A DNA stretch of 64,000 nt, from assembly GCA_045577985.1 (NCBI GenBank), contig JAZNJJ010000024.1, forward strand, positions 82,041-146,040. Direction: 5' to 3'. How positions within the stretch are numbered: the first letter of the stretch is position 1; each line of letters opens with the position of its first letter. The DNA is from Alphaproteobacteria bacterium. GTDB taxonomy: Bacteria; Pseudomonadota; Alphaproteobacteria; RF32; CAG-239. A program made the translations under genes and the position numbers. This document shows, in pieces, positions 20,685-63,541 of the stretch. The notes under the pieces were generated by a model. The model made no database searches. It saw only the letters and a list, made by a program, of their open reading frames with translations, and was not told the DNA's origin.

Positions 20685-21215
20685 ATGAATAAATTTTTTA
20701 AAATTGTTTGTATTTTATTGTTTTTATTGTTGGGAAATATTTCAAATGGAAATGCAGGTTTGAATATTTTTCCTCAACCAAGATATATTCCTAAGTTAAG
20801 TTTTTATGGGGATAGTGGAAAATCGTATACAGTTGATAATTTTAAATCTGATTTATTAATGGTGATGATTTGGTCAAGATATTGTGGACCATGTATTGGT
20901 GATATGAAGCATATGGATTCTTTTGCTCAAAAAATGAAAGATAAGGGAGTTAGAGTTATAATAATTTCTCCAGCTAGCGAATGGAAAAGTATTGATGAGC
21001 GTAGAACATTTTTAAAACGTATTGGCGCTCCTAATTTGGTTAGTTATTTAGATAAAAAGGCTAACTTTATGTTGGGGATGGGAGTTATGTCAACACCAAC
21101 TGTTATATTGATAAATAACCGTTCTGAAGAGGTTGGGCAAATATCAGGGTCTGTTGAATGGGATGAACCTGAAGTTATTGATTATATATTAAAATTGAAG
21201 AAAAGTTTATATTAA
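20685..21215 (+). CDS. thioredoxin-like thiol:disulfide oxidoreductase (TlpA/ResA/DsbE family)
   Basis: Signal peptide and WSRYCGPC (CxxC) thioredoxin-fold motif. Confidence 0.7.
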   Translation: MNKFFKIVCILLFLLLGNISNGNAGLNIFPQPRYIPKLSFYGDSGKSYTVDNFKSDLLMVMIWSRYCGPCIGDMKHMDSFAQKMKDKGVRVIIISPASEWKSIDERRTFLKRIGAPNLVSYLDKKANFMLGMGVMSTPTVILINNRSEEVGQISGSVEWDEPEVIDYILKLKKSLY

Positions 21216-47956: not shown

Positions 47957-50095
47957 CTATTTTGTTGCTCTAGCTACGTAACTAATGGATTTAGAAGCTT
48001 TTAGAGCTAATACCAAACTGTTTAATTGATCAACATTTCTTACTTCAATATCTAAAAGTATTTCAAAATAACTTAATGTTCGGTACGTAATATTCAAGTT
48101 TATAATATTAGATTCTGTTTTAGCTACAATATTTGCAACATCTGCTAATGCTCCAGGTTCATTGCTTAGCATGAGTTTTAATCGTGCTGTGTGTTTTTCA
48201 TTTTCAGCATCTACACCCCATTCTATATCTAACCAGCGTTCAGGTTCTTTTTCATAATTTTTTAGTGATGGGCAATCAATTGTATGTATGGTAACTCCTT
48301 TTCCAGTGGTAACAATACCAACAATTCTATCTCCAGGAAGCGGGTGACAACATCCGGCAAAATGTACAGCCATACCATCAATTAATCCTTTTATTTTTAA
48401 TGCATCTTTTTTGGAATTTTCTTTTTTGAAACCTGGTAACTTAAACGAATTAACCATTTTTTCCAGTTTTGATTGTTTGTATGCAGGATGAACTGCTCTT
48501 AAAACATCCCAACCAGTGATTAAACCTTCTCCAACTTTGGCATAAATATCGTCAACAGTTTCGGCTTCAAAATTTGATAAAACATTTACTAATCCTTTTT
48601 CAGAAAAATCCTGATCTTCAGATTTAAATAATTTTTCTAATATTTCTTTACCTAATGTTATGAATTGTTCTCTTTTATTTATTCGTATATATCTGCGAAT
48701 TGCGGCTTTTGCCTTACCTGTAACAACGAATCTATCCCATTCCAATGACGGATGTTGATTTTTTGCGGTGAGGACTTCTACTTGATCACCATTTTGGAGA
48801 ATTGTTCTAAGGGGTTTTATTTCACCATTTATTTTAGCTCCAACACAAGTATCTCCAACATTAGAATGGACAGCGTAAGCAAAATCTACGGGGGTTGAGC
48901 CCATCGGTAAACCTATAAGATCTCCTTTAGGTGTAAAACAAAATACTTGATCGTTATACATTTCAAGTTTTGTATTCTCAAGAAATTCGTCAGGATTTTG
49001 GGCCTGATCAAGAATTTCAAGAAGTTCACGAATCCAGCGAAAATTTTTCCCTTCAGTTCTTTGGCCTTGTTTATATGCCCAGTGAGCAGCAACACCTTTT
49101 TCATTAACTTCATGCATTTCATATGTGCGAATTTGAACCTCAATGCGGACATCAAATGGGCCGATTACACCAGTATGAAGTGATTGATAACCATTAGGTT
49201 TTGGGGTGGAAATATAGTCTTTGAAACGTCTAGGAACCATATGATATTTACTATGAATTATTCCGAGAGCTTGATAACAATCAGCAACAGAATTTACACA
49301 AATTCGAAATGCCATAATATCTGAAAGTTGTTCGAAAGATGCGTTTTTTAACTGCATTTTTCGCCATATAGAATAAGGGGCTTTTTCTCTTCCTGTTATG
49401 GAACAGTGAATGCCATTATCATTCATATCCTTTTCTAATTGCTTTAATATTTTAGGAACAACATCGTTACCTTGTTCACGTAAGAAATTTAGTCTGGCAA
49501 CAATCGAATCGTGAGCTTCTTTATATAATTCGGCAAATGCAATATCATCCATTTCTTCTTTAATTTCTTGCATTCCGATACGTTCTGCAAGAGGGGCATA
49601 TATATCAAGTGTTTCTTTTGCTATGCGCGCTCTTTTCTCTGGAGCACAGAAATGCAATGTACGCATATTATGTAGTCTGTCAGCCAATTTTATCAATAAA
49701 ACACGGATATCTTCAGACATTGCGAGCAATAGTTTGCGAAAGTTTTCAGCCTGTTTACTGGAACCGGATTTTTGTTCGATCATTGCTAATTTTGTTAGAC
49801 CATCAACTAATTGGGCAACTTGATCACCAAAAAGATTTTTTATTTCATCTAATGTTGTATCTGTATCTTCTACAGTATCATGTAGTAAAGCTGCAATTAT
49901 TGAGGCACAATCTAAACGAAAACGTGTTAAAATACCTGCGACTTCAATCGGATGAGAGTAATATGGATCTCCAGATGTTCTTAATTGTGAACCATGTTTT
50001 TTTAATGCAAAAACATATGCTCTGTTTAAAGCATCTTCGTCTGCATATGGATCATAAGACTTTACTAAATCAACTAATTCATATTGTCGTAACAT
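47957..50095 (-). CDS. spoT: bifunctional (p)ppGpp synthetase/hydrolase RelA/SpoT family
   Basis: HD hydrolase motif HDTVEDT, synthetase domain, and TGS and ACT C-terminal domains in a full-length 712-aa protein. Confidence 0.9.
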   Translation of the reverse strand: MLRQYELVDLVKSYDPYADEDALNRAYVFALKKHGSQLRTSGDPYYSHPIEVAGILTRFRLDCASIIAALLHDTVEDTDTTLDEIKNLFGDQVAQLVDGLTKLAMIEQKSGSSKQAENFRKLLLAMSEDIRVLLIKLADRLHNMRTLHFCAPEKRARIAKETLDIYAPLAERIGMQEIKEEMDDIAFAELYKEAHDSIVARLNFLREQGNDVVPKILKQLEKDMNDNGIHCSITGREKAPYSIWRKMQLKNASFEQLSDIMAFRICVNSVADCYQALGIIHSKYHMVPRRFKDYISTPKPNGYQSLHTGVIGPFDVRIEVQIRTYEMHEVNEKGVAAHWAYKQGQRTEGKNFRWIRELLEILDQAQNPDEFLENTKLEMYNDQVFCFTPKGDLIGLPMGSTPVDFAYAVHSNVGDTCVGAKINGEIKPLRTILQNGDQVEVLTAKNQHPSLEWDRFVVTGKAKAAIRRYIRINKREQFITLGKEILEKLFKSEDQDFSEKGLVNVLSNFEAETVDDIYAKVGEGLITGWDVLRAVHPAYKQSKLEKMVNSFKLPGFKKENSKKDALKIKGLIDGMAVHFAGCCHPLPGDRIVGIVTTGKGVTIHTIDCPSLKNYEKEPERWLDIEWGVDAENEKHTARLKLMLSNEPGALADVANIVAKTESNIINLNITYRTLSYFEILLDIEVRNVDQLNSLVLALKASKSISYVARATK

Positions 50096-50181
50096 CGTAT
50101 TCCTCTATTTAGAGATAAAAAAAGCAAAACATACTGACATTATAATATGCTTTGCTTTAATAATTGTTAATTTCAATTAAA

Positions 50182-50658
50182 TTAATCTATATCATCAAAT
50201 CCGTCATCACCGAAAGAATCATCTAATGAGTCATCACCAAAATCACTATCATCTAATTCAAGATCAGAACCTTCAGCATCTAAATCAATATCTTCATCAT
50301 CTCCATGAATTTGCATAACTTCGGTTAAATCCTCATCGCTGATCATATCACTAGAAAATTGTTCATCAAGATCAGACAATTCTTTTTCTGCAGCAAGAAT
50401 TTCAACTTCTTCATCTTCAGGTTCTTCAACTTCAACATAATGTTGTAATCCCATAACCAAAGATTTTTGTAAATCCTCAATACTAACTTTATTTTCTGAA
50501 ATTTCACGTAATGCAACAACAGAATTCTTATCATTATCTCTGTCTACGCACAAATGTGAACCAGCAGAAATATCTCTAGCTCTTTGAGCTGAGATTAAAA
50601 CTAAATCATAACGATTAGGAATTTTATCTATACAATCTTCAACAGTAACTCTTGCCAT
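50182..50658 (-). CDS. rpoZ: RNA polymerase omega subunit with an acidic C-terminal tail
   Basis: N-terminus [28 protein letters not shown], and its position upstream of spoT. Confidence 0.8.
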
Positions 50659-50738
50659 TTTTTATACCTTCATATGAAATTATCTTTTAGATGTTTATAC
50701 ATAGTATATTTCTTAAATGCAACATATTTTTTATAAAA

Positions 50739-51980
50739 TTATGGAATTACAATAGGTGTTCCTGTGTAATGAGAGTTAAATTCAAATAATTTATCTCGCA
50801 ATGTGTAAATAAATGGTTTTACCGCTTCTATATCATTGTTATTTGTATTAAATATTTGTATTGTTGCTTCTATGAAATATTTATATTGTTGTTTTTCTTC
50901 TGGCGTATAATCATATGCATCTATCATTTCATATAAATAACCTTTTCTTAATAATCTTAATGTTGTTGCATAGGCATTGGAAATGTTTGCGACTCTGTAA
51001 GCTTTTATTGTTTTATCACAAGTATAGGCCCAATCATCAATGCCAAACGATTGTTCTCCTATAATATCTTGAAATTCGGATTGTAATCCTGTCCATTTTA
51101 TTTTTCGGGCAATTGTCTGACAAGGATTTACTAATCCTTTTAAAAAGGCTACATGAGTATTTGTTCCATTTTTTTCATCCCAATAATTTATTATAGGATC
51201 AATCATTATCATACGAATTTCATTTTTATTTGTAGCTTTGAATTTATGCAATCCATCTAATGTGGCCATAAAAGCTTTAACGTCGGCACTACTGAGAGGA
51301 GTATTTTTATCAGCGTAATAGTGGCGAATCCCGAGATTGGGTTCATTTTTATCATTGCCTAAAGCATAATCAGATACAGGGACTTTTTCTTTCACTTTTT
51401 TTATAAATTCCGGATTTATTCGTATCTTGTTTGTGTCTGGGGGGACATTTATTGGTTTGGGTATTTCTATTTTTTCCATGTCTTCACCCCAAAACAAAGG
51501 ACTTAAATATACGTACATAGCTGGAGAAGCAAATTCTATATCAGGGATTGACTGCATTCTTTTAGCAATTTTTTCTGGAAATTTATTTTTTGTTTCTTTT
51601 ATACCGGGCAAGTCTAAAATTTTGCCAGATAATCCCTTTGTTTGGTGTAATAATGGGCCAATATAAGGATACATTGATTTCGGCATACGTTTTATTGTTT
51701 GTAATATCTTTTCTTCGTCTGGATCATTTATTCTTTTTTCAATGGTTCCAAAATTAATGATGTTTTGTTTGAATTCCGTATCAAATATCGTTGGCATATC
51801 CCAACTGTATCGATATTTCCAATCATAATTTGAGTGTTTTCTTCTGTATTCTCTTTCTAATCGCCATATAAGAGGTAATTCTTCATTTAAATCTACGTCG
51901 TATAGATGTTCGTATTCTTTTAATTGTGCATTACATGGTATTGATATTAATAAAGCAATAAGAAAAAGTATTAAGTGCAT
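50739..51980 (-). CDS. hypothetical secreted protein (413 aa)
   Basis: Signal peptide MHLILFLIALLISIPCNAQ; no recognised domain. Confidence 0.5.
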   Translation of the reverse strand: MHLILFLIALLISIPCNAQLKEYEHLYDVDLNEELPLIWRLEREYRRKHSNYDWKYRYSWDMPTIFDTEFKQNIINFGTIEKRINDPDEEKILQTIKRMPKSMYPYIGPLLHQTKGLSGKILDLPGIKETKNKFPEKIAKRMQSIPDIEFASPAMYVYLSPLFWGEDMEKIEIPKPINVPPDTNKIRINPEFIKKVKEKVPVSDYALGNDKNEPNLGIRHYYADKNTPLSSADVKAFMATLDGLHKFKATNKNEIRMIMIDPIINYWDEKNGTNTHVAFLKGLVNPCQTIARKIKWTGLQSEFQDIIGEQSFGIDDWAYTCDKTIKAYRVANISNAYATTLRLLRKGYLYEMIDAYDYTPEEKQQYKYFIEATIQIFNTNNNDIEAVKPFIYTLRDKLFEFNSHYTGTPIVIP

Positions 51981-52109
51981 GACATTCTCCTTTACATCAT
52001 TATTCTAGCGGATAAATGTTAAAAAAAAATGATAAATTTAAAAATTATTACTAGACATAACTTAAAAAATTGGATAGACTTCGAAAAAAGTGTTTTCTGG
52101 AGGATATGA

Positions 52110-52562
52110 ATGGCTTGGACTGAAGAAATGGTTGAAGGACTTCGCCAAATGTGGGTTGAAGGTTTAACAGCTAATGAAATTGCAAAGAGATTGGGTGTTT
52201 CTAAAAATTCTATTGTTGGGAAAGTACATCGTTTATGTTTAAAAGCTCGTCCTTCCCCTATTAAGAAGAAAGTTGCTCCACAAGAGGTTAAAGTTGAAAC
52301 ATCTGTCGAAACAGAAGTTGTTGAAGAAGTTGTTACTGAAAATGTTGTTGAGGAAGTTCAAAAAGAAAGTGTTGTTAATTCTAAAGTAGTAGCTAATGAG
52401 GAAAATATAAAATTAGTGCAATTAGATAGTCATACGTGTCGTTGGCCTATCGGCGATCCTCGTGACGATGATTTTTGTTTTTGTGGTAGAAAAGTTAGGA
52501 TGGGACAAACATATTGCGATGAACATTCTGCAGTAGCATATGTAAAGGCAGGAAAAAAGTAG
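52110..52562 (+). CDS. gcrA: cell-cycle transcriptional regulator GcrA
   Basis: N-terminus MAWTEEMVEGLRQMWVEGLTANEIAKRLGVSKNSIVGKVHRL and the conserved C-terminus CRWPIGDP...FCG. Confidence 0.85.
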   Translation: MAWTEEMVEGLRQMWVEGLTANEIAKRLGVSKNSIVGKVHRLCLKARPSPIKKKVAPQEVKVETSVETEVVEEVVTENVVEEVQKESVVNSKVVANEENIKLVQLDSHTCRWPIGDPRDDDFCFCGRKVRMGQTYCDEHSAVAYVKAGKK

Positions 52563-52574
52563 TTGTTTTATAAA

Positions 52575-52605
52575 AAAAGAGGCTCAGCCTCTTTTTTTTA
52601 TACAT
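52575..52605 (+). terminator. intrinsic terminator aaaaaagaggctcagcctctttttttt after gcrA
   Basis: Stem GAGGCT/AGCCTC followed by a T8 tract, 13 nt after the gcrA stop. Confidence 0.65.
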
Positions 52606-52655
52606 TTAAAGCATATATCAAAATAGTCGTTGTTTTAACAAAAAGGATATATGCT

Positions 52656-53807
52656 ATGGTTAGGTTTAATTATATAGGACTATTAAGTTTGTTGACAATT
52701 GGTATGATTTCAACAACAGCGAATGCTTCATCTTCTTTAGGTGAGGATTATACCAAATTTAAAAATTTATTAAATGAAAAATATGGATTTAATTACAATT
52801 TAAGTTATTCCGTTTTAGGTCAACATGCTTCACCGGGTGGAAAATATAATGCAGTACAATCGTACTTTTCTCCATCATTTACATGGACTAATTTTGATAA
52901 TGAATATGGAACAGGAGCATTGAATTTTTCATATAATAGTGTTTTCTATGGTCGTCATAATGCTGAAGATATTCAAAATAGAACAGGAATGGTAACACCT
53001 ATAAATGATTTTGATGATAATGCTCAGGAATTTGCTAATTTATATTATACATATCAATTTCCTAGAAAACTTAATTGGTTGACATTGGGTGTTGGTCAAT
53101 ATGGAATTTCTATGTTTGATGGAACAGCATATGATAATAACCAGCAAGTTAATTTTGTAAATTTTGCATTGTCTCAAAATGCAACATCAACATATTCTAC
53201 AGCTGGTCTGGGTTTCTTTATTCAAGCTAATCCTGGGAACTGGTCTTTTGTTGCAGGTGCTCAAGATGCAACAAATATTTCAGGTCCAAGTATCAGATTT
53301 AACCATTTGAATGAGGAACATTATGCCACATTTGGTTCAATCGGTTATAATCCTAATATTCCAAAATTAGGAAAAGGACAATACTCTGTATTGGTATATA
53401 ATCAGCCATATGTTAATGAGCAAAAACAATCAACAACAGGATGGTCAATAAATTTATCTCAAAATATTGGAGAGAAATTAAATTTGTTTGGTAGAATTAA
53501 TGGGGTAAATGGTAGTGTTTCTTCTATAAGTCAATCTTATGTTGCAGGCTTGGCTTATAATGATCCTTTAGATAGAAATGAATTGGATCAAATTGGTTTT
53601 GCTTATTCTTATAATAAAATTGATAAAGGTGCTGTTGGACAAGAATTGCATCATGATGCAGAACAAGTTTTAGAAGCTTATTGGGCTTGGGGTATCTCCA
53701 AGTGGGCAACGATTACTCCTGATTTTCAGTTCTATATTAATCCTGCTTTGAATAAAGGTTCTGATTATGGAACGGTTAGTTCTGTCAGATTAACATTATT
53801 CTTCTAA
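52656..53807 (+). CDS. outer-membrane beta-barrel porin-like protein; start corrected to MVRFNY
   Basis: Signal peptide ...TTANASSS and alternating beta-strand pattern with a C-terminal LTLFF (terminal Phe). The gcrA terminator lies inside the listed N-terminal extension, and an AAAGGA RBS sits 9 nt before nt 52656. Confidence 0.5.
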   Translation: MVRFNYIGLLSLLTIGMISTTANASSSLGEDYTKFKNLLNEKYGFNYNLSYSVLGQHASPGGKYNAVQSYFSPSFTWTNFDNEYGTGALNFSYNSVFYGRHNAEDIQNRTGMVTPINDFDDNAQEFANLYYTYQFPRKLNWLTLGVGQYGISMFDGTAYDNNQQVNFVNFALSQNATSTYSTAGLGFFIQANPGNWSFVAGAQDATNISGPSIRFNHLNEEHYATFGSIGYNPNIPKLGKGQYSVLVYNQPYVNEQKQSTTGWSINLSQNIGEKLNLFGRINGVNGSVSSISQSYVAGLAYNDPLDRNELDQIGFAYSYNKIDKGAVGQELHHDAEQVLEAYWAWGISKWATITPDFQFYINPALNKGSDYGTVSSVRLTLFF

Positions 53808-53908
53808 AATTAATGATAAAAATGTGAAACCGGCTGTTAATTAGTCGGTTTTTTTTTGTTTTTTTCTTTACATTGTGCAAATAAATGTGAATATTAAAAT
53901 GTTAATAT

Positions 53909-54457
53909 ATGTGTTTTGAGGACTTTATGAAGAAACTGAATATTTTTCTTTTTTTATTTGTATTGTGTGGCTGTACTAACAATAATGTTAAGTTAGTTCC
54001 AGGAATAGTTCCCAATTCAGCTAAAGAAAAACAAGTGGTGGAAGTAATGCCTAATAATATAATTGGAGAAATTGAACCTATTTACTTATTACCAATGAAA
54101 ACTCCTTTTTTATCGAGAATTGATACAGGAGCGGCAACCTCTTCTCTTGATGCAGAAGATGTTAAACATTTTGAGAGAGATGGTAATAAATGGGTTTCTT
54201 TTGTTATCGTTAATAGGGTTACTGGTGAAAGAGTTTTTTTTGAAAAACCAATCGAGCGTAGAACAAAAATTAAACGAATCGGAGATTATGAACGAAGAAC
54301 TATTGTAGAAATGGATGTGAAATTCGGTGGAGAATTTTTTAAGGCGGATTTTTCCATTGCGGAAAGAGAAAAATTTGAGTATCAGGTGTTAATCGGAAGA
54401 AATATTCTTAATGGTAGAGCTATAGTAGATGTTTCTCTTTCAAATACTTTAAAATAA
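53909..54457 (+). CDS. retropepsin-like aspartic protease-fold lipoprotein (the family annotated as 'ATP-dependent zinc protease', RimK-associated)
   Basis: Lipobox VLCGCT and the catalytic-type signature RIDTGAATSSLDA (D-T-G-A). Confidence 0.6.
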   Translation: MCFEDFMKKLNIFLFLFVLCGCTNNNVKLVPGIVPNSAKEKQVVEVMPNNIIGEIEPIYLLPMKTPFLSRIDTGAATSSLDAEDVKHFERDGNKWVSFVIVNRVTGERVFFEKPIERRTKIKRIGDYERRTIVEMDVKFGGEFFKADFSIAEREKFEYQVLIGRNILNGRAIVDVSLSNTLK

Positions 54458-54477
54458 TTTATGCATGGGACTTTTTT

Positions 54478-56013
54478 ATGAAAAAAATATTTTCAGTACG
54501 TGGTGTTTTAGTTGTTCTGTTGCTTTTAACAACGTTTTTTTCTGTATGGGCTACATATTATAAAATTAATTATTGGGGATTTAGTCTAAATCCAAACAAA
54601 GAAACAGATGTTTGGACGGTTGATGCTCATATTTCTTTTGAGCCAACAGGTGATGATATTGAGGTTTCTTTATCTATTCCTAGTATTAGCGAGGAATATA
54701 GGATATTAAGTGAAGATGTTGTTGCTCCAGGGTATGATATTGTTAAAGATGATGAAAAACATAGATTAAGATTGTTTTCAAAAGCTCAAGAATTAAAACA
54801 GGATTTATATTATAGGATAATGATTTATGATAATAAAGAATCCGATGCTGTTGTTAAAAATTATGAACAAGATGAGATAAAGATTGAAGAACCAAAGTTT
54901 TCTGATGAATTACAAGAAGGTATGGTTAATGAAATTTGGAATTTGGCTAATGAATATGAAGGTAGTGATGCCAGTAAAATAATTAAATTACTTAATGAAA
55001 AGCCGTTAAAACCACAAGTTGATTCTTTTTTGCCAATTCATAAAAATCAAAGAATTATGGCCGATAGTATTATTTATCTGTTATCTGTTAAGGGGATTCC
55101 GGCAAGAGTTGTTCGTGGTATAAAATTGACGGAGAAAAGAAAATCGGCGAAAGCTGATTTAATGATAGAAGTGTTTGAAAAGAAAAAATGGAAAGTTTAT
55201 AATATTGAAAACGGAAAATCAGGATTGCCTAAAAATTTTATTCTTTTTCAAAGAGGTGGTGTTTCTTTATTAGATGTTGTAGGTGGAGAAAAATCTAAAG
55301 TTAAATTTTCTGTGTTAAAATCTGTTGTTTCTTCATTTAAAATGGCGGGAAGACGTGCAAAATATGCAGAAAGTAAATTATTTGATTATACAATCTATAA
55401 TTTACCAATGTTAGAGCAAAATACTTTGAAATGGTTGATGATTTTTCCTCTAGGTATTTTGTTGGTTGTTTTAATGAGAAATGTTGTGGGTATTCGCACG
55501 ATGGGAACATTTACTCCCATGTTAATTGCAATGTCTTTAGTGAAAACGGGATTTGGCGCAGGGCTTGTTTGTTTTTCTTTAATTATCATTATGGGATTGC
55601 TAATAAGGTCTGCATTGACACGTCTTAATTTATTATTGGTTCCTCGAATTTCTGCTGTAGTGATTTGTGTTATTCTTATTATTCAAATGTTGACAATATT
55701 TGGGTATATCTCAAATTTTGTTATTGCTTCATCAGCGGTGTTCTTTCCAATTATTATTACAGCGTGGATTATTGAACGAGCCTCAATCACATGGGAAGAA
55801 GAAGGAGCTAAAAATGCATTTAAGCAGATTCTAAATAGTGTAATTGTGGCTATTTTTACGTATTTTGTTATTAGTAATGAAAATATTCGTCATATTATGT
55901 TTGCCTTTAACGAATGGAATTTAGTTATCTTGTTTATTATAATGCTTCTCGGTACATATACGGGGTATCGTCTGACTGAGTTAAAACGTTTTGCTCCTTT
56001 ATTAAAGGATTAA
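54478..56013 (+). CDS. transglutaminase-like extracytoplasmic domain fused to a C-terminal 7-TM module (the 'inactive transglutaminase fused to 7TM' family)
   Basis: N-terminal TM segment, an extracytoplasmic domain of about 300 aa, then about seven C-terminal TM helices; lies next to a RimK-like ligase. Confidence 0.55.
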   Translation: MKKIFSVRGVLVVLLLLTTFFSVWATYYKINYWGFSLNPNKETDVWTVDAHISFEPTGDDIEVSLSIPSISEEYRILSEDVVAPGYDIVKDDEKHRLRLFSKAQELKQDLYYRIMIYDNKESDAVVKNYEQDEIKIEEPKFSDELQEGMVNEIWNLANEYEGSDASKIIKLLNEKPLKPQVDSFLPIHKNQRIMADSIIYLLSVKGIPARVVRGIKLTEKRKSAKADLMIEVFEKKKWKVYNIENGKSGLPKNFILFQRGGVSLLDVVGGEKSKVKFSVLKSVVSSFKMAGRRAKYAESKLFDYTIYNLPMLEQNTLKWLMIFPLGILLVVLMRNVVGIRTMGTFTPMLIAMSLVKTGFGAGLVCFSLIIIMGLLIRSALTRLNLLLVPRISAVVICVILIIQMLTIFGYISNFVIASSAVFFPIIITAWIIERASITWEEEGAKNAFKQILNSVIVAIFTYFVISNENIRHIMFAFNEWNLVILFIIMLLGTYTGYRLTELKRFAPLLKD

Positions 56014-56017
56014 TTAT

Positions 56018-56968
56018 ATGATGAATTTATTTAACATTTTTTCATATTCTAGAAGACTAAAAGAAAAGGGTATTCTTGGTATGAATGCTCGTAATTATAA
56101 TATAATTGCAAAAAATAATAAGCGTTCATTGTATCCGTTAGTAGATGATAAAGTTCAAACAAAAAAACTTGCAAATTCCATAGATATAAATACGCCAAAG
56201 ATGATAGGTGTTATTGAACATCAATATGAAGTTGAAAATTTATTTGAGATTATTGAAGGATATTCAGAGTTTGTTATCAAACCTTCACATGGTAGTGGAG
56301 GTAAGGGAGTTTTGGTAATATGTCATTATGAACGAGGCGTTTTTATAACGCCGTCCGGAAAAGAGTTAACGTTTAAGGAAGTATATCAGCATATTTCGAA
56401 TATCTTGAGTGGTTTATATAGCTTAGGTGGTCAAGATGATGTGGTTTTAATTGAAGAACTTGTACATTTTAGTGATGTTTTTGAATGTTTTAGCTATCAG
56501 GGAGTTCCGGATGTTAGAGTGATTGTGTATAAGGGATATCCTGCTTTAGCTATGACTCGTTTAGCAACAAAGGAATCTGGCGGAAGAGCTAATTTACACC
56601 AAGGTGGCGTTGGTGTTGGATTAGATATAAAAACGGGGAAAACATTAAATGCAGTATGTCATAATTTACCAATTAAAAATCATCCGGATACAGGCGTTAA
56701 TTTAATGGACTTGCAGGTTCCATTGTGGCGAGAGCATTTGTTAATTGGGGCTCAGGCTTATGATATGACTGGATTAGGATATTTAGGAGCAGATATTGTT
56801 TTAGATAGAGATAGAGGTCCAATGTTATTGGAATTAAATGCTCGTCCAGGGTTAGCTATACAAATAGCAAATGGTCGTGGATTGCAATTTATATTAGATA
56901 AAATTGAAAAAACATATCCTAAAAATCTTTCAGCAAAAGAAAGAGTAGATTTTGTCTTGAATAATTAA
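56018..56968 (+). CDS. RimK-like ATP-grasp 'alpha-L-glutamate ligase-like' protein
   Basis: ATP-grasp motifs (FVIKPSHGSGGKGV, LLELNARPG) in a protein of about 316 aa. Confidence 0.75.
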   Translation: MMNLFNIFSYSRRLKEKGILGMNARNYNIIAKNNKRSLYPLVDDKVQTKKLANSIDINTPKMIGVIEHQYEVENLFEIIEGYSEFVIKPSHGSGGKGVLVICHYERGVFITPSGKELTFKEVYQHISNILSGLYSLGGQDDVVLIEELVHFSDVFECFSYQGVPDVRVIVYKGYPALAMTRLATKESGGRANLHQGGVGVGLDIKTGKTLNAVCHNLPIKNHPDTGVNLMDLQVPLWREHLLIGAQAYDMTGLGYLGADIVLDRDRGPMLLELNARPGLAIQIANGRGLQFILDKIEKTYPKNLSAKERVDFVLNN

Positions 56969-57001
56969 AATTAACTTCCTAAATATTGGATAGGAAATAT
57001 A

Positions 57002-57622
57002 ATGAAAGGAAGAAATATGACTGACTTATTAGAAAAATCAGAAACAAAAAATATAGCAAAACCAGATACAAAGAATATAGAGGATGCAGATACAAAAAAA
57101 TTAGAAATGAGTGAAAGTCGGGCTAAAAAGATTAAACATTCATATAGTGTTAAAGATGCTGAAAATTCTTTATTATTAAAAACTGAAAGAGGTGATGTTG
57201 TTATTGAGATGTTTCCTGATGTTGCACCAAACCATGTAGCAAGAATAAAGGAATTAGTGCGTCAAGGATATTATAATGGATTGAGGTTTCATAGAGTTAT
57301 TGAAGGCTTTATGGCTCAGGCTGGTTGTCCAAAAGGTGATGGAACAGGTGGAAGTGGTGTTAAACTAAAAGCAGAATTTAATCGTATTCGTCATACACGA
57401 GGAATAGTTTCTATGGCTAGAGCTATGGATCCGGATTCTGCGGATAGTCAATTTTTTATTTGTTATGCTGATTGTCCTTGGTTGGATGGGCAATATACAG
57501 TTTGGGGTGAAGTTACTGCCGGAATGGAATATATTGATATGCTGAAAAAAGGCGGTGGAGCAAGTGGAATGGTTGCAAATCCCGATATTATTGTTTCAAT
57601 GACAGTTATTGCAGATATTTAA
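57002..57622 (+). CDS. ppiB: cyclophilin-type peptidyl-prolyl cis-trans isomerase
   Basis: RFHRVIEGFMAQAGCPKGDGTGGSG motif; the N-terminus carries a K/D-rich extension of about 45 aa. Confidence 0.85.
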   Translation: MKGRNMTDLLEKSETKNIAKPDTKNIEDADTKKLEMSESRAKKIKHSYSVKDAENSLLLKTERGDVVIEMFPDVAPNHVARIKELVRQGYYNGLRFHRVIEGFMAQAGCPKGDGTGGSGVKLKAEFNRIRHTRGIVSMARAMDPDSADSQFFICYADCPWLDGQYTVWGEVTAGMEYIDMLKKGGGASGMVANPDIIVSMTVIADI

Positions 57623-57643
57623 TAATATACGTTAATTAACAGA

Positions 57644-57677
57644 ATGTCCGAAAAAAGGGATCCCTTTTTTCGGACAT
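57644..57677. terminator. perfect 34-nt palindrome ATGTCCGAAAAAAGGGATCCCTTTTTTCGGACAT (copy 1); probable ppiB terminator
   Basis: Exact self-complementarity, located 22 nt after the ppiB stop and followed by T-rich sequence. Confidence 0.55.
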
Positions 57678-57750
57678 AAATTTACTATTTTTCTTTTTTC
57701 TCATTTATCATAAATTCAATATGTTAAAAAAATATTTACGCTCTAAAAAA

Positions 57751-57782
57751 TGTCCGAAAAAAAGGATCCTTTTTTTCGGACA
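57751..57782. promoter_or_regulatory. perfect 32-nt palindrome TGTCCGAAAAAAAGGATCCTTTTTTTCGGACA (copy 2) in the pilin-like gene leader, 19 nt upstream of its start
   Basis: Second copy of the copy-1 motif with a symmetric G>A / C>T change on both arms that preserves perfect pairing; it ends 7 nt before the AGGAGA RBS. Confidence 0.5.
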
Positions 57783-57800
57783 ATGGAAAGGAGAATAATA

Positions 57801-58439
57801 ATGAATAAAATGTGTAGAACCAATATTCAATCAGGTCGTTCAATGATTGAAATGCTTGGAGTTTTAGCGATTATCGGCGTGTTATCTGTAGGTGGTATTG
57901 CAGGTTATTCAAAAGCGATGATGAAATATCGAATCAATAAAACGATTGATCAAGTTACGCAAATTTCGCAAAATGTTAGAACTTTATATGCCAGATATAA
58001 ACAATATCGTAATTTAAATGAGAGAATTGCATATAAAGCTAATTTAGCCCCAAAAGAAATGTTCTATATGGCCTCTCGTGGTGTTTACGATATGACCAAT
58101 GATTGGGGAGGATATTTTTCTGTGCATTCAACGGGTTTTGATGTAAAAAGTTTTACAGTTGAAACCTCGAATTTACCGAATGAGGCATGCATAGAACTTG
58201 CTACGCAAGATTGGGGAAACCTAGATACTACTGGATTAATTTCAGTAAGTGTTACTAATGGGGATGATTTGGATCTACCAACCGAAGATGATTTAGTAGG
58301 AAATTGTTCTGGTAAAATAGGTAATGGTTATGCTATTGCTTGTTCCGGAGGATCTGTTGTTTCCATACCTATGCCAGTTGAAGTGGCGGTTGATGCTTGT
58401 GGAAATAAGAAGGGCAATATTATGTGGATTTTTCAATAA
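57801..58439 (+). CDS. type IV pilin-like / pseudopilin-like protein (prepilin-type N-terminal cleavage/methylation domain)
   Basis: MNKMCRTNIQSG | RSMIEMLGVLAIIGVLSVGGIAGY has a short basic leader, Gly at -1, Glu at +5 and a hydrophobic helix. The C-terminus has paired Cys residues (NCSG...IACSGG, DACGN). The start is set at the Met with an AGGAGA RBS, and the listed upstream extension crosses the palindrome. Confidence 0.55.
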   Translation: MNKMCRTNIQSGRSMIEMLGVLAIIGVLSVGGIAGYSKAMMKYRINKTIDQVTQISQNVRTLYARYKQYRNLNERIAYKANLAPKEMFYMASRGVYDMTNDWGGYFSVHSTGFDVKSFTVETSNLPNEACIELATQDWGNLDTTGLISVSVTNGDDLDLPTEDDLVGNCSGKIGNGYAIACSGGSVVSIPMPVEVAVDACGNKKGNIMWIFQ

Positions 58440-58472
58440 TTAAAAATTCTTTTTTTATTGTAAATAAATTTG

Positions 58473-59141
58473 TTATTGGTAGCTTCCAGTCATAAAACCT
58501 CCATCAACGATTATATCTTGTCCATTGATATAATGGTTTTGAGGCGAAGCCAAAAAATAGACTATATCAGCAATGTCTTCAGGTTTAGCTAAGCGGTTTA
58601 GAGGTATCTTTGAGGCTAAATAGGTGCGTTTCTCCTCGTTATTGTTGGCACGAAACATCTTTGTATCAACGAACCCTGGAGAAACGGTGTTGCATAAAAT
58701 ATTATATTTTCCCAATTCTAGGGTTAGTGTTTTGATTAAACCTGTTAATGCGTGTTTCGACGATGTGTAAGCCACTCGCCCTTCTCTAGATATAGATGCG
58801 TAAAGGGAACCTATTCCTATTATGTATCCAAATTTTTGTTTAGCAAAATGGGGAATTATCTGCTGGCAGATAGTTAAAAGAGATGTAACATTGATGTTTT
58901 GTGTTTTGTTAAATTCATCCAGGCTAATTTCTTCAATATTTAAGGGATTGTTGTAACCTGCAGAATGAATTATTACATCAAAGTTATTACCATTTTTTTG
59001 AAAATAGGTTTGAATATCTTTAGAATTATTCAAATCTAATTCTTTGCTTGAAGGTGATATAACTTCGTGTCCTTCTTTTTGGAACTTTTCTCTTATGGCG
59101 CTTCCAATTCCACCATTTCCACCAGTCATAAATATTCTCAT
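58473..59141 (-). CDS. short-chain dehydrogenase/reductase (SDR) family oxidoreductase
   Basis: N-terminal TGGNGGIGSAI (TGxxxGxG) and catalytic YTSSK (YxxxK). Confidence 0.8.
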   Translation of the reverse strand: MRIFMTGGNGGIGSAIREKFQKEGHEVISPSSKELDLNNSKDIQTYFQKNGNNFDVIIHSAGYNNPLNIEEISLDEFNKTQNINVTSLLTICQQIIPHFAKQKFGYIIGIGSLYASISREGRVAYTSSKHALTGLIKTLTLELGKYNILCNTVSPGFVDTKMFRANNNEEKRTYLASKIPLNRLAKPEDIADIVYFLASPQNHYINGQDIIVDGGFMTGSYQ

Positions 59142-59306
59142 TTATTTTTTCCTATGTTGTTTTTCTTTATTTAATTATGAAAAAATTAATAAAAATTTAC
59201 CGTTGTGAATTATTTTGTAAAAAATATTTAAAATTATCTTATTGATTTTTCGTTTAATTATTAAAAATTATCAAAAAAAATCGAACAAAAGTAGAACAGT
59301 TAATAA

Positions 59307-59354
59307 AATACTAAAAAATACCATTGAATCCCATAAAATACCATGTTATACCAT
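59307..59354 (+). promoter_or_regulatory. array of 10-bp-phased direct repeats (AATACCAT / AATCCCAT / AATACCAT / TATACCAT, plus a degenerate AATACTAA) upstream of mraZ; candidate MraZ operator
   Basis: Repeat starts at 59317, 59327, 59337 and 59347 with exactly 10-bp spacing, and a weaker unit at 59307. The array ends 36 nt before the mraZ start. Confidence 0.45.
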
Positions 59355-59389
59355 AAATATGAGTTAACCCATTTTTAAGGAATCTGATT

Positions 59390-59851
59390 ATGAGAAAAGT
59401 TTTTCTCTTTATGGATACCATATTTAACAAAGTAGATGCGAAAGGTCGTGTCTCTTTGCCATCAGATTACCGCGCAATGGTTAAAGAATTATCAACAGAA
59501 ATTGTTTGCTATCGCAGTTTGACATCCCCTTGTATTGAGGGATGTTTAGAGGATTTATTGGATAAACTTGCAACGGAAATAGAGGATTCGACAGATTTTT
59601 TCTCGGAAAAACAAGATAATTTAACTAATTTAATTTTCGGAGATGCAAAACGTTTTATGTTTGATAGTACAGGTCGAATTGTGTTGACAGAAAAATTATT
59701 AAATCATGCTCAGATTACAGATATGGCTGTGTTTGTGGGTAAAGGACGTAAATTTCAGATATGGAACCCTGAAAATTGGGAAAAAGAAGAAGCTCGAATA
59801 AGAGCAGAAGTTTTAGCGAATCGCCCTGTTTTGAAAAAGGATGCTGAATAA
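59390..59851 (+). CDS. mraZ: transcriptional regulator MraZ
   Basis: Duplicated MraZ/SpoVT-AbrB-type domains (DAKGRVSLP, DSTGRIVL). Confidence 0.85.
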   Translation: MRKVFLFMDTIFNKVDAKGRVSLPSDYRAMVKELSTEIVCYRSLTSPCIEGCLEDLLDKLATEIEDSTDFFSEKQDNLTNLIFGDAKRFMFDSTGRIVLTEKLLNHAQITDMAVFVGKGRKFQIWNPENWEKEEARIRAEVLANRPVLKKDAE

Positions 59852-60765
59852 TGTTAGAACAAAAGCAAAGACATATTCCAGTTATGTTGGCGGAGGTTCT
59901 TCGTTATTTGGAACCTAAAAATGGGGAAATTTATGTTGATGCGACTTTTGGAAATGGAGGGTATAGTAGAGCAATTTTAGAAAAAGCAAATTGTAAGGTA
60001 ATTGCTTTGGATAGAGATCCAAATGTCGTAGTTAGAGCAAATGAAATGAAAAATTTGTTCGGGGATCGTTTTGAGTTTAGAAAGGGTCAATTTGGTGATT
60101 TTAATGATTTGATTCCGGAAAAGGTTAATGGAGTTGTTTTTGATATAGGCGTTTCTTCAATGCAATTGGATGAGGCAGAGCGTGGATTTTCCTTTTCTAA
60201 AGATGCTGTTTTGGATATGAGAATGTCTTGTGAAGGAATTTCTGCGAAGGAGATTGTAAATACATTTGAAGAAAAAAAATTGGCTGATTTGATTTATGAA
60301 TATGGTGAAGAAAGAAAATCGCGCCAGATTGCGCAAAGAATTGTTGAATATCGTAGAAAAAAAGAAATTGAAACAACTCGTGAATTAGCTGAAATAATTT
60401 ATCAGGTTATTCATAAAAAAGTGGGAGAAATAGATCCGGCAACGAGAACTTTTCAAGCTTTAAGAATTGCAGTCAATGATGAATTGGGTGAGTTATCTAG
60501 AGGTCTTGAGGGAGCTTCTAGACAATTGTTGAAGGGTGGTAGGCTTGTTGTTGTCGATTTTCATTCGTTGGAAGATAGAATCGTTAAGATATTTATGAGA
60601 GATAATGGCGGTAAAAAAGTTAGAATTTCTAAATATGCACCAGATTTGGTGAAAGAAAATAGCTTGTTTACTGAAGTGTCAAAGGTAATAGTGCCAACAG
60701 TTGAAGAGTGTCATAAGAATCCGCGGGCACGTTCAGCTAAGTTAAGATATGCGGTTAGGGGATAA
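59851..60765 (+). CDS. rsmH: 16S rRNA (cytosine1402-N4)-methyltransferase
   Basis: SAM-binding motif DATFGNGGYS; lies directly after mraZ. Confidence 0.9.
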   Translation: MLEQKQRHIPVMLAEVLRYLEPKNGEIYVDATFGNGGYSRAILEKANCKVIALDRDPNVVVRANEMKNLFGDRFEFRKGQFGDFNDLIPEKVNGVVFDIGVSSMQLDEAERGFSFSKDAVLDMRMSCEGISAKEIVNTFEEKKLADLIYEYGEERKSRQIAQRIVEYRRKKEIETTRELAEIIYQVIHKKVGEIDPATRTFQALRIAVNDELGELSRGLEGASRQLLKGGRLVVVDFHSLEDRIVKIFMRDNGGKKVRISKYAPDLVKENSLFTEVSKVIVPTVEECHKNPRARSAKLRYAVRG

Positions 60766-60768
60766 ATT

Positions 60769-61134
60769 ATGAGCAGTATCAAAACGGCAATGGTTGTTCT
60801 GTGGCTTACTTTAACTCTTTTTGTGGCTTTAGGGTCTTCTGTTTTGAAAAATAGAGTGCAGATTTTAGAAAAAAGATTGGCTACTATAAATGAAAATATT
60901 CAAAAGGATATTCAAAATATTCATGTATTGAAAGCTGAGTGGAGCCATTATAATACTCCTGATCGATTGCAAAAATTGGCATATGAACAATTATCTTTAG
61001 AAAAAGCAAAACCTGAACAAATTATTAACTATTCTGCTTTACACTTTAATTATGAAGATGAAAAATTAGGTGGTAAAGTTTCAGCAAATAAAAAAAGGTT
61101 GACAACTTTAGTAAAAGCAGAAGTTAAGAGATAA
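60769..61134 (+). CDS. ftsL: cell division protein FtsL-like
   Basis: Single TM segment plus a coiled coil; about 121 aa between rsmH and ftsI. Confidence 0.55.
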   Translation: MSSIKTAMVVLWLTLTLFVALGSSVLKNRVQILEKRLATINENIQKDIQNIHVLKAEWSHYNTPDRLQKLAYEQLSLEKAKPEQIINYSALHFNYEDEKLGGKVSANKKRLTTLVKAEVKR

Positions 61135-61139
61135 GAAAA

Positions 61140-62891
61140 ATGGGGTTTAATGTAAATTTTTCTAAAAGAAATACAGAGAGATTTTATCTTCCGGGACAGG
61201 AAATAAAAATTTCTAGGGGAATGGTTTCTCAGAAAAATTATACTACAGAAAGTGATAATGTGTTGACTTGTAGAAACAGAACATGGTTCTCTATGTGCTG
61301 TTTTGTTTTTATGTATATTGTTTTAGCTTTGCGTGTGAGCTATGTTTGTTTAAGCAATGGTATAAATATTGATACAGCTATTTCTAATGAACAACTCGTT
61401 GATGCTGATACTATTAAATTTAAAAATCCTGTTAAACGTGCTGATATTCAAGATCGAAATGGGGAAATTATTGCAACTTCTTTGCCTACCGTTAATTTGT
61501 ATGCTAATACAAAAAAAATAAAACAACCAAAGGACGTTGCGGAAAAGCTTAATTTTATTTTTCCGGAAATAAAATATGAGCGCTTTTTAGAGTTATTGAA
61601 CAGACGTAGTGCTTTTATTTATTTAAAGAGAAATCTGTCTCCTGCTCAACAATCTCAAGTTAATTCATTGGGAATTCCTGGTTTGGAATTTGAAAGTTGT
61701 GAGAAAAGAGTATATCCTCATAAGAATTTATTTTCGCATGTTTTAGGTAATACAAATATTGATAATGAGGGGATATCAGGACTAGAGCGGTATATGGATG
61801 AAAGATTGACATCATCTACAAAACCTCTAGATTTATCTGTTGATTTGGGTGTACAAAGTACAATTAGAGAAGAACTTTTAGCAGGTGTTAAGCAATTTGA
61901 TGCAGCTGGAGCTTCTGCTGTTTTAATGGATGTGAATAATGGTCATGTTTTAGCAATGGTATCTGTACCAGATCATGATCCAAATGAAGGGGTGAAGGAA
62001 ACATTTAATTTCGCGACTAAAGGTGTTTATGAAGCCGGTTCTGTGTTTAAGGTATTTAATACGGCTTTATGTTTAGATAGTGGAAAAATTAAGGTATCCG
62101 ACAGATTTGATACATCTGAACCTATTTATTTTGGTAGATATAGAGTGTCTGATCCTCATGGATCTAATAAAAAATTAACTCCAGAAGATATTTTAGTAGA
62201 ATCGTCAAATATTGGTTCAGCTTTAGAGGTAATGAAAGTTGGAAAAGAATATCAGCGTAAGTTTATGCAAAAAATAAATATGGATAAAGAGTTGAGCAAT
62301 TTTGAATTGATTGAAACAGCAAAACCTTTATTCTTGGATGAAAAACGATGGACAGATCATTCTATGGCTACAATAAGTTACGGTTATGGTATTTCTGTTA
62401 CTCCACTTCATATTGTTTCTGCTTTTTCTGCAATGGTAAATGGTGGAATTTATTATGAACCTACACTTATTAACCAAAGTGTACGTGAAGGAAAAAAAGT
62501 AATTTCGGAAAAAACATCAAAATCTATGCGAAAACTTTTGCGTGCAGTTGTTGTTAAAGGTACAGGAAAAAGGGCAAATGTTGATGGTTATCAGGTTATT
62601 GGAAAAACAGGAACTGCTAATAAACTTGTGAATGGTAAGTATGACCATAAAAAAAGTATTTCTACTTTTATATCTGCATTTCCAGAGAATAATCCGAAAT
62701 ATGCATTATTAGTAGTGGTTGATGAGCCTAAGGGAAGTAAGGATACTTGGGGACATACAGAAGCAGGTTGGAATGCGGTGCCTATTACTAATAATATAAT
62801 TACGGCTATTGCTCCTCAATTAAATGTTAAAGTTGATTTTGATTTGGATAAGCAAAAGAGTATTGTTGATGCAGCATATATAAAAGATTAG
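61140..62891 (+). CDS. ftsI: peptidoglycan D,D-transpeptidase FtsI (PBP3)
   Basis: SVFK (SxxK), SSN and KTGT motifs with an N-terminal TM anchor. Confidence 0.85.
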   Translation: MGFNVNFSKRNTERFYLPGQEIKISRGMVSQKNYTTESDNVLTCRNRTWFSMCCFVFMYIVLALRVSYVCLSNGINIDTAISNEQLVDADTIKFKNPVKRADIQDRNGEIIATSLPTVNLYANTKKIKQPKDVAEKLNFIFPEIKYERFLELLNRRSAFIYLKRNLSPAQQSQVNSLGIPGLEFESCEKRVYPHKNLFSHVLGNTNIDNEGISGLERYMDERLTSSTKPLDLSVDLGVQSTIREELLAGVKQFDAAGASAVLMDVNNGHVLAMVSVPDHDPNEGVKETFNFATKGVYEAGSVFKVFNTALCLDSGKIKVSDRFDTSEPIYFGRYRVSDPHGSNKKLTPEDILVESSNIGSALEVMKVGKEYQRKFMQKINMDKELSNFELIETAKPLFLDEKRWTDHSMATISYGYGISVTPLHIVSAFSAMVNGGIYYEPTLINQSVREGKKVISEKTSKSMRKLLRAVVVKGTGKRANVDGYQVIGKTGTANKLVNGKYDHKKSISTFISAFPENNPKYALLVVVDEPKGSKDTWGHTEAGWNAVPITNNIITAIAPQLNVKVDFDLDKQKSIVDAAYIKD

Positions 62892-63076
62892 CTTTATTTA
62901 TAACTTTAGTATTATAAAATAATGCACATTTTTTAACTTTATTGCTATTTTTTTTGTTTTTGTTATTGAAAAATTTACTATTATTTCTTAAGTTGTTTAT
63001 TGTATTAGTTGTAATGCAATTAAGTTAACTTTCGTAGAAATACGATAAATTGTAAAAACCATATGGAGAAAATAAG

Positions 63077-63541
63077 ATGAAAAAACTTTTAAGTTTGTTC
63101 GTAGCTCTTGTAGCATTATCTGGTTGTTCAGCTTTAGGTATGGACGGCGGTTTATTTGGTGGTGCTGATTGCCAATCAAGATTAGCACGTGATTTTGCTG
63201 AAAATTCAACAGATACAGTATTTTTCGCATTTGATAGTTCTGCATTATCTGCAGAAGCTAGAGCTGCTTTAGATACTCAAGTTGAGTGGTTGAAAGATCA
63301 TGAAGATGTTCATGCTGTTGTTCAAGGTTATTGCGATGAGAGAGGTACTCGTGAATATAACTTAGCTTTGGGTGAGCGTCGTGCAAATGCTGTTAAACAG
63401 TATTTAGTATCTCAAGGCATTGAAGAAGATAGAATTTCTACAATTTCTTATGGTAAAGAAAGACCTGCAGTTTTGGGTAGTAATGAAGCTGCTTGGGCTC
63501 AAAACCGTCGTGCTGTAACAGTTGTTAGTGCTGTTGAATAA
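63077..63541 (+). CDS. pal: peptidoglycan-associated lipoprotein (OmpA-family), Pal-like
   Basis: Lipobox LSGCS and an OmpA C-like domain (ends with NRRAV); about 154 aa. Confidence 0.7.
   Translation: MKKLLSLFVALVALSGCSALGMDGGLFGGADCQSRLARDFAENSTDTVFFAFDSSALSAEARAALDTQVEWLKDHEDVHAVVQGYCDERGTREYNLALGERRANAVKQYLVSQGIEEDRISTISYGKERPAVLGSNEAAWAQNRRAVTVVSAVE

Follow-up and report, generated by a model that had tools for sequence, protein, structure and literature searches.

The window, as the whole stretch of 64,000 nucleotides analysed here will be called, comes from an uncultured alphaproteobacterium. At positions 57801–58439 of the forward strand it contains an open reading frame (ORF) of 212 amino acids, located in the gap between a PPIase gene and an SDR gene, the predicted product of which is a pilin precursor of the type IVb class. 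The ATG at 57801 is preceded, at a distance of 7 nt, by an AAGGAG core (57788–57793). An alternative in-frame ATG at 57750, which would lead to a protein of 229 residues, was rejected, being part of a hairpin and lacking a ribosome-binding site. As, in addition, all close homologues of the window pilin begin with the residues MNKMCRT, the start at 57801 was accepted. The features of the locus are listed in Table 1.

Table 1. Features of the pilin locus in window coordinates, from the first upstream hairpin to the stop codon.
Feature	Position	Strand	Remarks
Hairpin 1, palindrome ATGTCCGAAAAAAGGGATCCCTTTTTTCGGACAT	57644..57677	+	22 nt after the PPIase stop codon
AT-rich spacer, 73 nt, with the block TCAATATGTTAA common to the paralogues	57678..57750	+	
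Hairpin 2, TGTCCGAAAAAAAGGATCCTTTTTTTCGGACA	57751..57782	+	ends 19 nt before the start codon
Ribosome-binding site GGAAAGGAG	57785..57793	+	kept in the paralogues
Leader peptide M1–G12, MNKMCRTNIQSG, 12 amino acids, basic residues K3 and R6	57801..57836	+	invariant Gly-1 at its end
Arg13 codon CGT, predicted +1 residue of the mature pilin	57837..57839	+	
N-terminal assembly helix R13–Y36, RSMIEMLGVLAIIGVLSVGGIAGY	57837..57908	+	G12–M40 invariant in the alignment of 23 family members
Rest of helix alpha-1, variable globular head and stop codon	57909..58439	+	

The protein begins with MNKMCRTNIQSG/RSMIEMLGVLAIIGVLSVGGIAGY, the slash marking the predicted cleavage site here and below. The residue at position -1, G12 (codon 57834–57836), follows the residues MNKMCRTNIQS and does not vary in the family, and Glu+5, the residue directly before MLGVLAIIGVLSVGGIAGY, is E17 (codon 57849–57851). 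A hydrophobic stretch of 22 residues extends from M15 to Y36. Cysteine codons at 58188, 58305, 58341 and 58398 correspond to C130, C169, C181 and C200, all four of which are conserved in the family, and from these we infer a disulphide-bonded carboxy-terminal region and which cysteine pairs with which. The predicted mature protein has 200 residues. A preliminary description of this DNA had named a class III signal with a short basic leader, Gly-1, Arg+1, Glu+5 and a helix of about 20 residues, together with carboxy-terminal cysteine pairs, and all of these are present. Where the class III signal has a hydrophobic or aromatic residue at +1, the window pilin has arginine. Exact-sequence look-ups of the window pilin, of protein P0010 and of the MiaA protein of the window gave no match.

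Classical type IVb leaders have about 13 to 30 residues. In the family described here most have 7 to 12, with far longer leaders, up to about 60 residues, in several subfamilies of the metagenome-assembled genome (MAG) RGIG4773 (for example MNNLEIKNIK...ATQSG/R). According to reviews, leader length is no longer valid as a criterion for the type IVb class (PMC4471445).

Assignment to the type IVb class

In Pfam, residues 43–158 of the window pilin match PilS_N (PF08805) with 45.1 bits (cut-off 22) and residues 44–141 match Bundlin (PF05307) with 35.3 bits (cut-off 22.3). A profile of 23 family members retrieves BfpA (E = 6e-10), S. Typhi PilS (2e-4) and TcpA (7e-3) from the PDB. When the profile is aligned to mature TcpA (PDB entry 8uhf), M15, I16 and E17 pair with L3, L4 and E5 of TcpA, which places R13 at the position of TcpA Met1, i.e. 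at +1. The AlphaFold2 model has a mean predicted local distance difference test score (pLDDT) of 78.8, with most of the head above 85 and low confidence for the amino-terminal 34 residues. When this model was compared to known structures with Foldseek, all eight matches with E <= 0.001 and the top fifteen overall were type IVb pilins, among them the type IVb pilus of enterotoxigenic E. coli (ETEC; PDB entry 9iuf), CofA, PilS and TcpA (probability 0.99–1.0, TM-scores 0.41–0.58). The sequence identity to the TcpA and CofA fold matches is 9–16%.

The preliminary description had considered a pseudopilin related to competence or to a type II secretion system (T2SS). In favour of a T2SS major pseudopilin or a Com-type pseudopilin one can cite the class III signal, the 12-residue leader, of a length like that of type IVa pilins and T2SS pseudopilins, and the PpdD-type model of E. 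coli, which matches weakly (19 bits, cut-off 158). Such an assignment is nevertheless effectively refuted: no match to T2SS_G or ComGC is present in the Pfam or NCBIfam results for the window pilin, the structures retrieved are instead those of BfpA, PilS, TcpA and CofA, and the operons with family members, described below, are type IVb pilus operons. The Pfam scans of the window also gave no gsp or com genes. Since sequence, profile and fold searches all give type IVb pilins, the window gene product is, as judged from sequence and model, a type IVb-class pilin and not a T2SS or competence pseudopilin.

Arginine at position +1 and the scattered gene copies

At least 7967 homologues were found in a database search, nearly all of them from gut and rumen metagenomes and from MAGs named "Alphaproteobacteria bacterium". 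In the DNA of related genomes, all 122 genes with the family amino-terminus have Arg at +1, as counted with a pattern that admitted Arg or Lys at this position, and Gly-1 and Glu+5 are also invariant in them. The arginine codons are CGT (82 genes), CGC (17), AGA (14), CGG (5), CGA (3) and AGG (1), and both TCN and AGY codons are present for Ser+2. Over the first 30 codons, 118 distinct DNA sequences are found among the 122 genes, with synonymous sites varying freely. The use of all six arginine codons and the number of distinct DNA sequences thus point to selection at the protein level, not to gene conversion or homogenisation of the DNA. Gene conversion was rejected as the source of the amino-terminal identity because synonymous sites differ between the copies.

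The same counts bear on the possibility that the window gene is a storage copy, acting as a recombination donor to an expression locus as the pilS cassettes of Neisseria do. The presence of many paralogues with an identical amino-terminal protein segment and variable heads would agree with this, as would the ends of contigs in other assemblies of the window's own species: two independent ones, L087 (1–638) and L088 (1–580), break within the conserved 5′ part of the pilin gene, and a third, L086, starts only 473 nt upstream of the gene. Such breaks in L087 and L088 would be expected if the 5′ segment were repeated in the genome. Every copy, however, has an ORF of full length together with a start codon, a ribosome-binding site and a conserved upstream module of its own, and the DNA variants at the shared amino-terminus give no sign of family-wide gene conversion. 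A storage role therefore appears very improbable.

To avoid the circularity of a search with the amino-terminus, the globular part only (residues 45–212) was searched against 1.84 billion cluster representatives, which gave 471 clusters at E <= 0.001. Among 145 new representatives examined, 114 have G/R, one has G/K (P0250) and none has a hydrophobic residue at +1. In the remaining 30, no cleavage motif was recognised by the pattern; these are mostly truncated at the amino-terminus or, in a few cases, built differently, although one of the 30, P0249 (...SGRSTIEML), does have G/R. The arginine, which had been taken for an oddity of this gene, is a hallmark of the family and not a quirk of the window pilin. 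To our knowledge, every characterised bacterial pilin starts with a hydrophobic residue, which is often N-methylated. The stretch after Gly-1 is described in reviews as hydrophobic apart from Glu5 (PMC4471445). Full-text literature searches for the amino-terminal peptide of the family and for pili in RF32-type gut Alphaproteobacteria gave no relevant paper, and the family appears to be undescribed in the searchable literature.

The distribution of the genes was analysed in a contig scan with one genome per GTDB species, in which at least 593 stretches matched, 575 were confirmed and 80 loci were kept; the copy numbers given here are for this reason lower bounds. The 80 loci mostly contain pilin genes alone or in small groups, amid unrelated genes. 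At least 31 distinct pilin genes are present in about 250 kb of MAG RGIG4773, and beyond residue 32 their products are 33–80% identical (median 45%). The closest relatives of the window pilin (67–71% identity) are also encoded by single genes, located for example between tig and uvrB or after a PBP1A gene. Standing alone is the normal state of the family, and the window gene is an ordinary member of it and no stray acquisition. Its earlier label as an orphan calls for no explanation of its own.

Several large proteins contain the family pilin domain at their carboxy-terminus and lack the G/R cleavage motif: P0194, P0210 and P0261 (696–841 amino acids), P0183 and P0226. In these, the pilin domain is preceded by a long amino-terminal region with YYPDGK-type repeats or by extra membrane helices. 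Contigs with family pilins have also been binned as Bacteroidaceae bacterium and [Ruminococcus] gnavus (L010, L015, L027 and L030), probably as alphaproteobacterial contamination of these bins.

Pilus operons, upstream hairpins and the site in related genomes

In 11 of the 80 loci, the family member is preceded, at a distance of about 3 kb, by a gene for a GspE-type ATPase, and in 12 related contigs family pilins are located inside type IVb operons. In locus L056, the order is TcpQ-like lipoprotein, secretin, PAP_PilO, coiled-coil protein, T2SSE ATPase and T2SSF platform protein; after T2SSF come a pilin-like protein without Glu5, a pilin with the motif G/RSMVEML and a short PilT-like ATPase. 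The genes of this operon type are all conserved in the 11 GTDB loci and in L090/L091. The operon ATPase has 2987 close homologues, part of which are called bfpD by their source. No peptidase gene was found in the related operon. An A24 peptidase of 250 amino acids (L012:16796–17548), with the motifs DKRFMLLPD and GGGDIKLL and a PF01478 score of 60.9 bits, is encoded in the same MAG as the operon and at least 31 pilin genes. It has 318 homologues, and the 120 listed are nearly all 226–245 residues long and match PF01478 alone, so that they lack the N-methylase domain that PilD-type enzymes have.

A protein of about 200 residues, encoded just 5′ of the G/R pilin (L056 9271–9867, also L052 8533–9195 and L090 12819–13409), is present in every type IVb operon. 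It has weak PilS and Bundlin matches and an amino-terminus (..AIKG TLLQLV..) without Glu+5 and Arg+1, and may be a tip or initiator minor pilin. In L052 (9337–11270) and L090 (13525–14844) the operon pilin is tandemly duplicated or triplicated, with copies that are near-identical over their amino-terminal two thirds. These operon-linked pilins contain two cysteines, most dispersed copies four. In a low-GC relative (L089, 9301–10702), a stand-alone A24 peptidase gene directly follows the gene of a LuxR-type regulator (Response_reg + GerE). Two homologues, chosen by their amino-acid composition as low-GC-looking, were rejected as components from the window's species, as neither could be tied to it: the peptidase P0505 is encoded on a contig of 34% GC from another sample, without hairpin, and the pilus ATPase P0348 on a contig of 43% GC.

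Upstream of the window gene, two near-identical 30-nt palindromes are located at 57646–57675 and 57752–57781, with the core GTCCGAAAAAA(G/A)GGATCC(C/T)TTTTTTCGGAC. Two copies are present in the window against none expected by chance, and the folding of the hairpin region has a z-score of -8.3. The centres of the hairpins are 106 bp apart in the window and 105–106 bp across loci, with hairpin 2 ending about 19 nt before the ATG. Paralogues in L081–L083 and L085 have the same pair upstream, as does the orthologue in L086; in L084, where the contig begins too near the gene, hairpin 2 alone is seen, and no further copies are present in the DNA of this lineage that was examined. JGI metagenome contigs scanned for the hairpin GTCCGAAAAAARGGATCCYTTTTTTCGGAC gave 0 matches, so that the link between hairpin and pilin rests on the window and on four loci (L081–L083, L084, L085 and L086). 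In the paralogous loci, the similarity extends from hairpin 1 through the stop codon; the repeated unit therefore comprises hairpin 1, spacer, hairpin 2, ribosome-binding site and ORF. At the twelfth stem pair, hairpin 1 has G-C, and hairpin 2 has G.T in the paralogues and A-T in the window, a series that fits a helix of plus-strand RNA. In each case the gene ahead of hairpin 1 runs in the same direction, and hairpin 1 is probably its terminator. A search of positions 57400–58700 with Rfam gave no family at gathering score, with sub-threshold matches to models of long hairpins in general, for instance precursors of plant miRNAs. In RGIG4773, a different hairpin, GACCGCCGTTTGGCGGTC with a T-run behind it, recurs about 45 nt ahead of the ATG in many of the 31 paralogues, so a hairpin-bearing upstream module may be general, with a sequence that is specific to the lineage.

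The pilin gene has a GC content of 35.7% and a GC content at third codon positions (GC3) of 23.5%, like its neighbours. The same locus is found on contigs from three other metagenomes, in which the pilin is about 98% identical and the flanking genes are 98.4–100% identical (99.4–100% when SDR is left out). The species of the window is present in the ENA samples ERZ28018977 and ERZ28436055 and in the run SRR12529278. When compared to L086, the pilin gene has 8 nonsynonymous and 5 synonymous codon differences, while SDR, mraZ, rsmH and ftsI together have 1 nonsynonymous and 13 synonymous differences (Fisher p = 0.004). Between the window gene and its three metagenome alleles, the class III motif is strictly conserved over its whole length, Glu+5 and the assembly helix included. 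From an intact, polymorphic gene of surface type, we infer that the system is probably a working one.

Locus L001 (MAG RGIG9217) is collinear with window positions 47957–63541, at 56–92% protein identity. Its PPIase–SDR gap contains a family pilin gene in the opposite orientation, the product of which is 49% identical to the window pilin, flanked by tandem repeats of 101 nt x 2.2 upstream (9367–9594) and 86 nt x 2.1 downstream (10818–10996). This suggests that pilin units are replaced or inverted at the fixed PPIase–SDR site. The preliminary description had named a recently acquired adhesin as one possibility, and a single gene wedged among convergent or unrelated housekeeping genes, with a hint of cassette-like turnover in L001, would fit such an arrival by horizontal transfer. 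The GC and GC3 values, however, are native to the region, no mobility genes are nearby, the gene is stable at its site in four independent samples and the family is confined to this clade, all of which makes recent acquisition highly improbable.

Directly upstream of the PPIase gene, positions 53909–56968 hold a conserved set of genes for a putative ATP-dependent Zn protease, a 7TM-inactive transglutaminase fusion and an ATPgrasp_ST enzyme. Four adjacent ORFs at 7119–11379 have no Pfam match at 1e-5; they encode proteins of 134 (forward strand) and 397, 449 and 412 amino acids (reverse strand), and the three large ones are rich in K, E and N and contain low-complexity stretches.

Proposed mechanism and comparison with known systems

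The window gene probably encodes a functional type IVb-class prepilin of the bundlin, TcpA and PilS kind and belongs to a large family of complete, individually promoted genes scattered over the chromosomes of uncultured gut and rumen Alphaproteobacteria. By analogy with established type IV pilin biology, the hydrophobic helix would insert the prepilin into the inner membrane. A short A24 peptidase without N-methylase, of the kind seen in related MAGs, would cut between G12 and R13, a site indicated by the invariant Gly-1 and Glu+5. The 200-residue mature subunit would then be polymerised by a type IVb machine like those of the bundle-forming pilus (BFP), the toxin-coregulated pilus (TCP) and the R64 thin pilus, presumably encoded elsewhere in this genome. 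Its parts would be a TcpQ-like lipoprotein, a secretin, a PilO-type accessory protein, a BfpD-like ATPase, a platform protein and a PilT-like ATPase. The invariant amino-terminal 29 residues would let any paralogue fit the same filament core, and the divergent, disulphide-stapled heads would offer alternative surfaces for adhesion or for escape from antibodies or phages.

More speculatively, Arg1 would most likely be the positively charged partner of Glu5, either in the membrane or in the core of the filament; alternatively, it could be a specificity determinant for the peptidase or the platform protein of the clade. This would suit a system in which the pilins are probably left without N-methylation. 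The paired hairpins upstream of every copy in the lineage might be a shared cis-element, in which hairpin 1 would insulate the pilin gene from the upstream gene or terminate the latter, and hairpin 2 may be a structure of the 5′ leader. The two hairpins, on one face of the helix and about ten helical turns apart, may also form a two-site operator. In its fullest form, the proposal is that in gut and rumen Alphaproteobacteria a single type IVb machine draws on many major pilins (at least 31 in one MAG), which are interchangeable and together form a large library dispersed over the genome, each gene having its own lineage-specific control element (here two identical hairpins about ten turns apart), which would allow one-at-a-time or condition-specific expression without gene conversion; the partner of Glu5 would be Arg1 in place of the N-methylated hydrophobic residue that all characterised pilins have, and the peptidase would have no methylase domain. 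This complete scheme is tentative and, taken as a whole, doubtful.

Several results weigh against a working prepilin, or against parts of the scheme built on it. The amino-terminal methylation models PF07963 (N_methyl) and TIGR02532 match at the correct position with 15.0 and 16.2 bits, respectively, below their thresholds of 21.2 and 16.3 bits. Such near misses could mean a chance likeness of an ordinary signal-anchor helix to a prepilin signal, which the preliminary description had expected to go with a genome without prepilin peptidase and a protein without N_methyl match. The outcome is mixed: the hidden Markov models (HMMs) stay just under threshold, and a peptidase and a type IVb operon are present in related genomes. 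Chance likeness is refuted by a motif that is invariant over hundreds of clusters, by the homology of the head to type IVb pilins and by the linkage to pilus operons; given the thousands of homologous database proteins among which the motif does not vary, the resemblance is far beyond chance. As the N_methyl models fall under threshold, pilin finders based on motifs or HMMs miss real pilins.

The other opposing points concern the residue at +1, the machinery and the control of the gene. Among characterised type IV pilins, none is known to us to have Arg at +1, nor do we know a precedent for a charged residue at this position. The Pfam content of the window is that of housekeeping genes (mreBCD, PBP2, rodA, leuS, ileS, ruvAB, dnaX, recR, spoT, gcrA, mraZ, rsmH, ftsI and others), and among all its ORFs of at least 100 amino acids no secretion ATPase, platform protein, secretin or A24 peptidase was found; tblastn with ten type IVb-operon and peptidase proteins of relatives also gave no match in the window, which bears out the earlier statement that no assembly genes are present in these 64 kb. 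In six relatives (L056, L052, L059, L067, L032 and L090), the operon is followed by a block of genes in the order PRT, Redoxin, VWA, PP2C, Ser/Thr kinase and NMO. Window positions 16062–21215 contain NMO, Ser/Thr kinase, PP2C, VWA and a divergent Redoxin, and VTT, a response regulator and FolD occupy the place where the operon would adjoin the block; the machine would therefore have been moved or lost in this species. The paralogues presumably belong to the same genome as the window, as judged from a shared sample, similar GC content and the lineage-specific hairpin. A promoter is presumably located in the spacer between the hairpins, and a sigma-70 promoter scan of this region gave nothing convincing. 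The roles given above to Arg1 and the hairpins are speculative.

The protein might also be made in this species without entering a filament, and act as a pilin-like adhesin or regulator that is either anchored in the membrane or released; or it might be a remnant after loss of the operon. In addition to the absence of machinery from the window and of the operon beside the Redoxin–VWA–PP2C–kinase–NMO block, the fusions P0194, P0210 and P0261, which have the same head domain and no cleavage site, agree with such a role, and in Haloferax volcanii membrane-held pilins have pilus-independent roles (PMC4371748). The strict conservation of the class III motif in the gene and its three metagenome alleles, however, would be unexpected without processing and assembly, and every related MAG that could be examined for machinery has the operon type, the peptidase or both. 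We consider a protein outside any filament unlikely, and a functional prepilin is the reading preferred here.

The family is unusual in its invariant Arg+1, its very large dispersed copy numbers, its methylase-less peptidase and its lineage-specific paired hairpins. With thousands of members and apparently a peptidase without methylase, it amounts to a natural experiment on the amino-terminus of pilins. The definition of type IV pilins rests in part on this terminus. The role of the first residue and of its methylation, and how Glu5 is neutralised, are listed as open questions in a 2023 review (PMC10191384). The host bacteria are common and uncultured in human, rodent and ruminant guts, and at least 31 alternative subunits would bear on adhesion and on immune and phage evasion. 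If true, a dispersed library would be a new route to variation of the pilus surface without gene conversion.

Among solved structures, the best sequence match of the family is BfpA, the bundlin of the BFP of enteropathogenic E. coli (PDB entry 1zwt). The operon of the relatives resembles that of the BFP in that it encodes two ATPases, one BfpD-like and a second one PilT/BfpF-like, as well as a secretin and a platform protein. In BfpA, the +1 residue is Leu and the leader has 13 amino acids, and its single gene is part of a plasmid-borne operon, whereas the family described here has Arg at +1, leaders of mostly 7–12 amino acids and dozens of chromosomal copies outside the operon. TcpA of the V. 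cholerae TCP and CofA of the ETEC pilus CFA/III are the top fold matches (PDB entries 9iuf, 3s0t, 8uhf, 3hrv and 1oqv). The amino-terminal helix is in register with that of TcpA at Glu5, and in the related operon a TcpQ-like lipoprotein adjoins the secretin. TcpA and CofA have N-methyl-Met at +1, leaders of about 25–30 residues and a bifunctional peptidase, and they are single-copy major pilins whose genes are part of the operon.

PilS of the R64 thin pilus and of the S. Typhi type IVb pilus (PF08805; PDB entries 1q5f and 3fhu) is the best Pfam match of the window pilin. The related operon shares with R64 the PAP_PilO gene and the order ATPase, platform protein, pilin, which in R64 is pilQ-pilR-pilS. 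R64 PilS has Trp at +1, and variation in R64 resides in the minor pilin PilV and is generated through a shufflon, while here it resides in many major-pilin paralogues. The arrangement also recalls pilE and pilS of Neisseria, with a conserved amino-terminus and many variable heads in one genome. The pilS copies of Neisseria are promoterless, lack the 5′ coding part and act by gene conversion; the copies described here, in contrast, are complete, have a ribosome-binding site and an upstream module, and are not homogenised at synonymous sites. Haloferax volcanii has six genes for adhesion pilins, PilA1–PilA6, which are unlinked to the assembly genes, encode a near-identical hydrophobic amino-terminal domain and can each provide the major pilin (PMC4371748). 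This set is archaeal, has six members against at least 31, is unrelated in sequence and has a PibD-type signal; by likeness of architecture, not by homology, it is the closest functional analogue of the arrangement described here.

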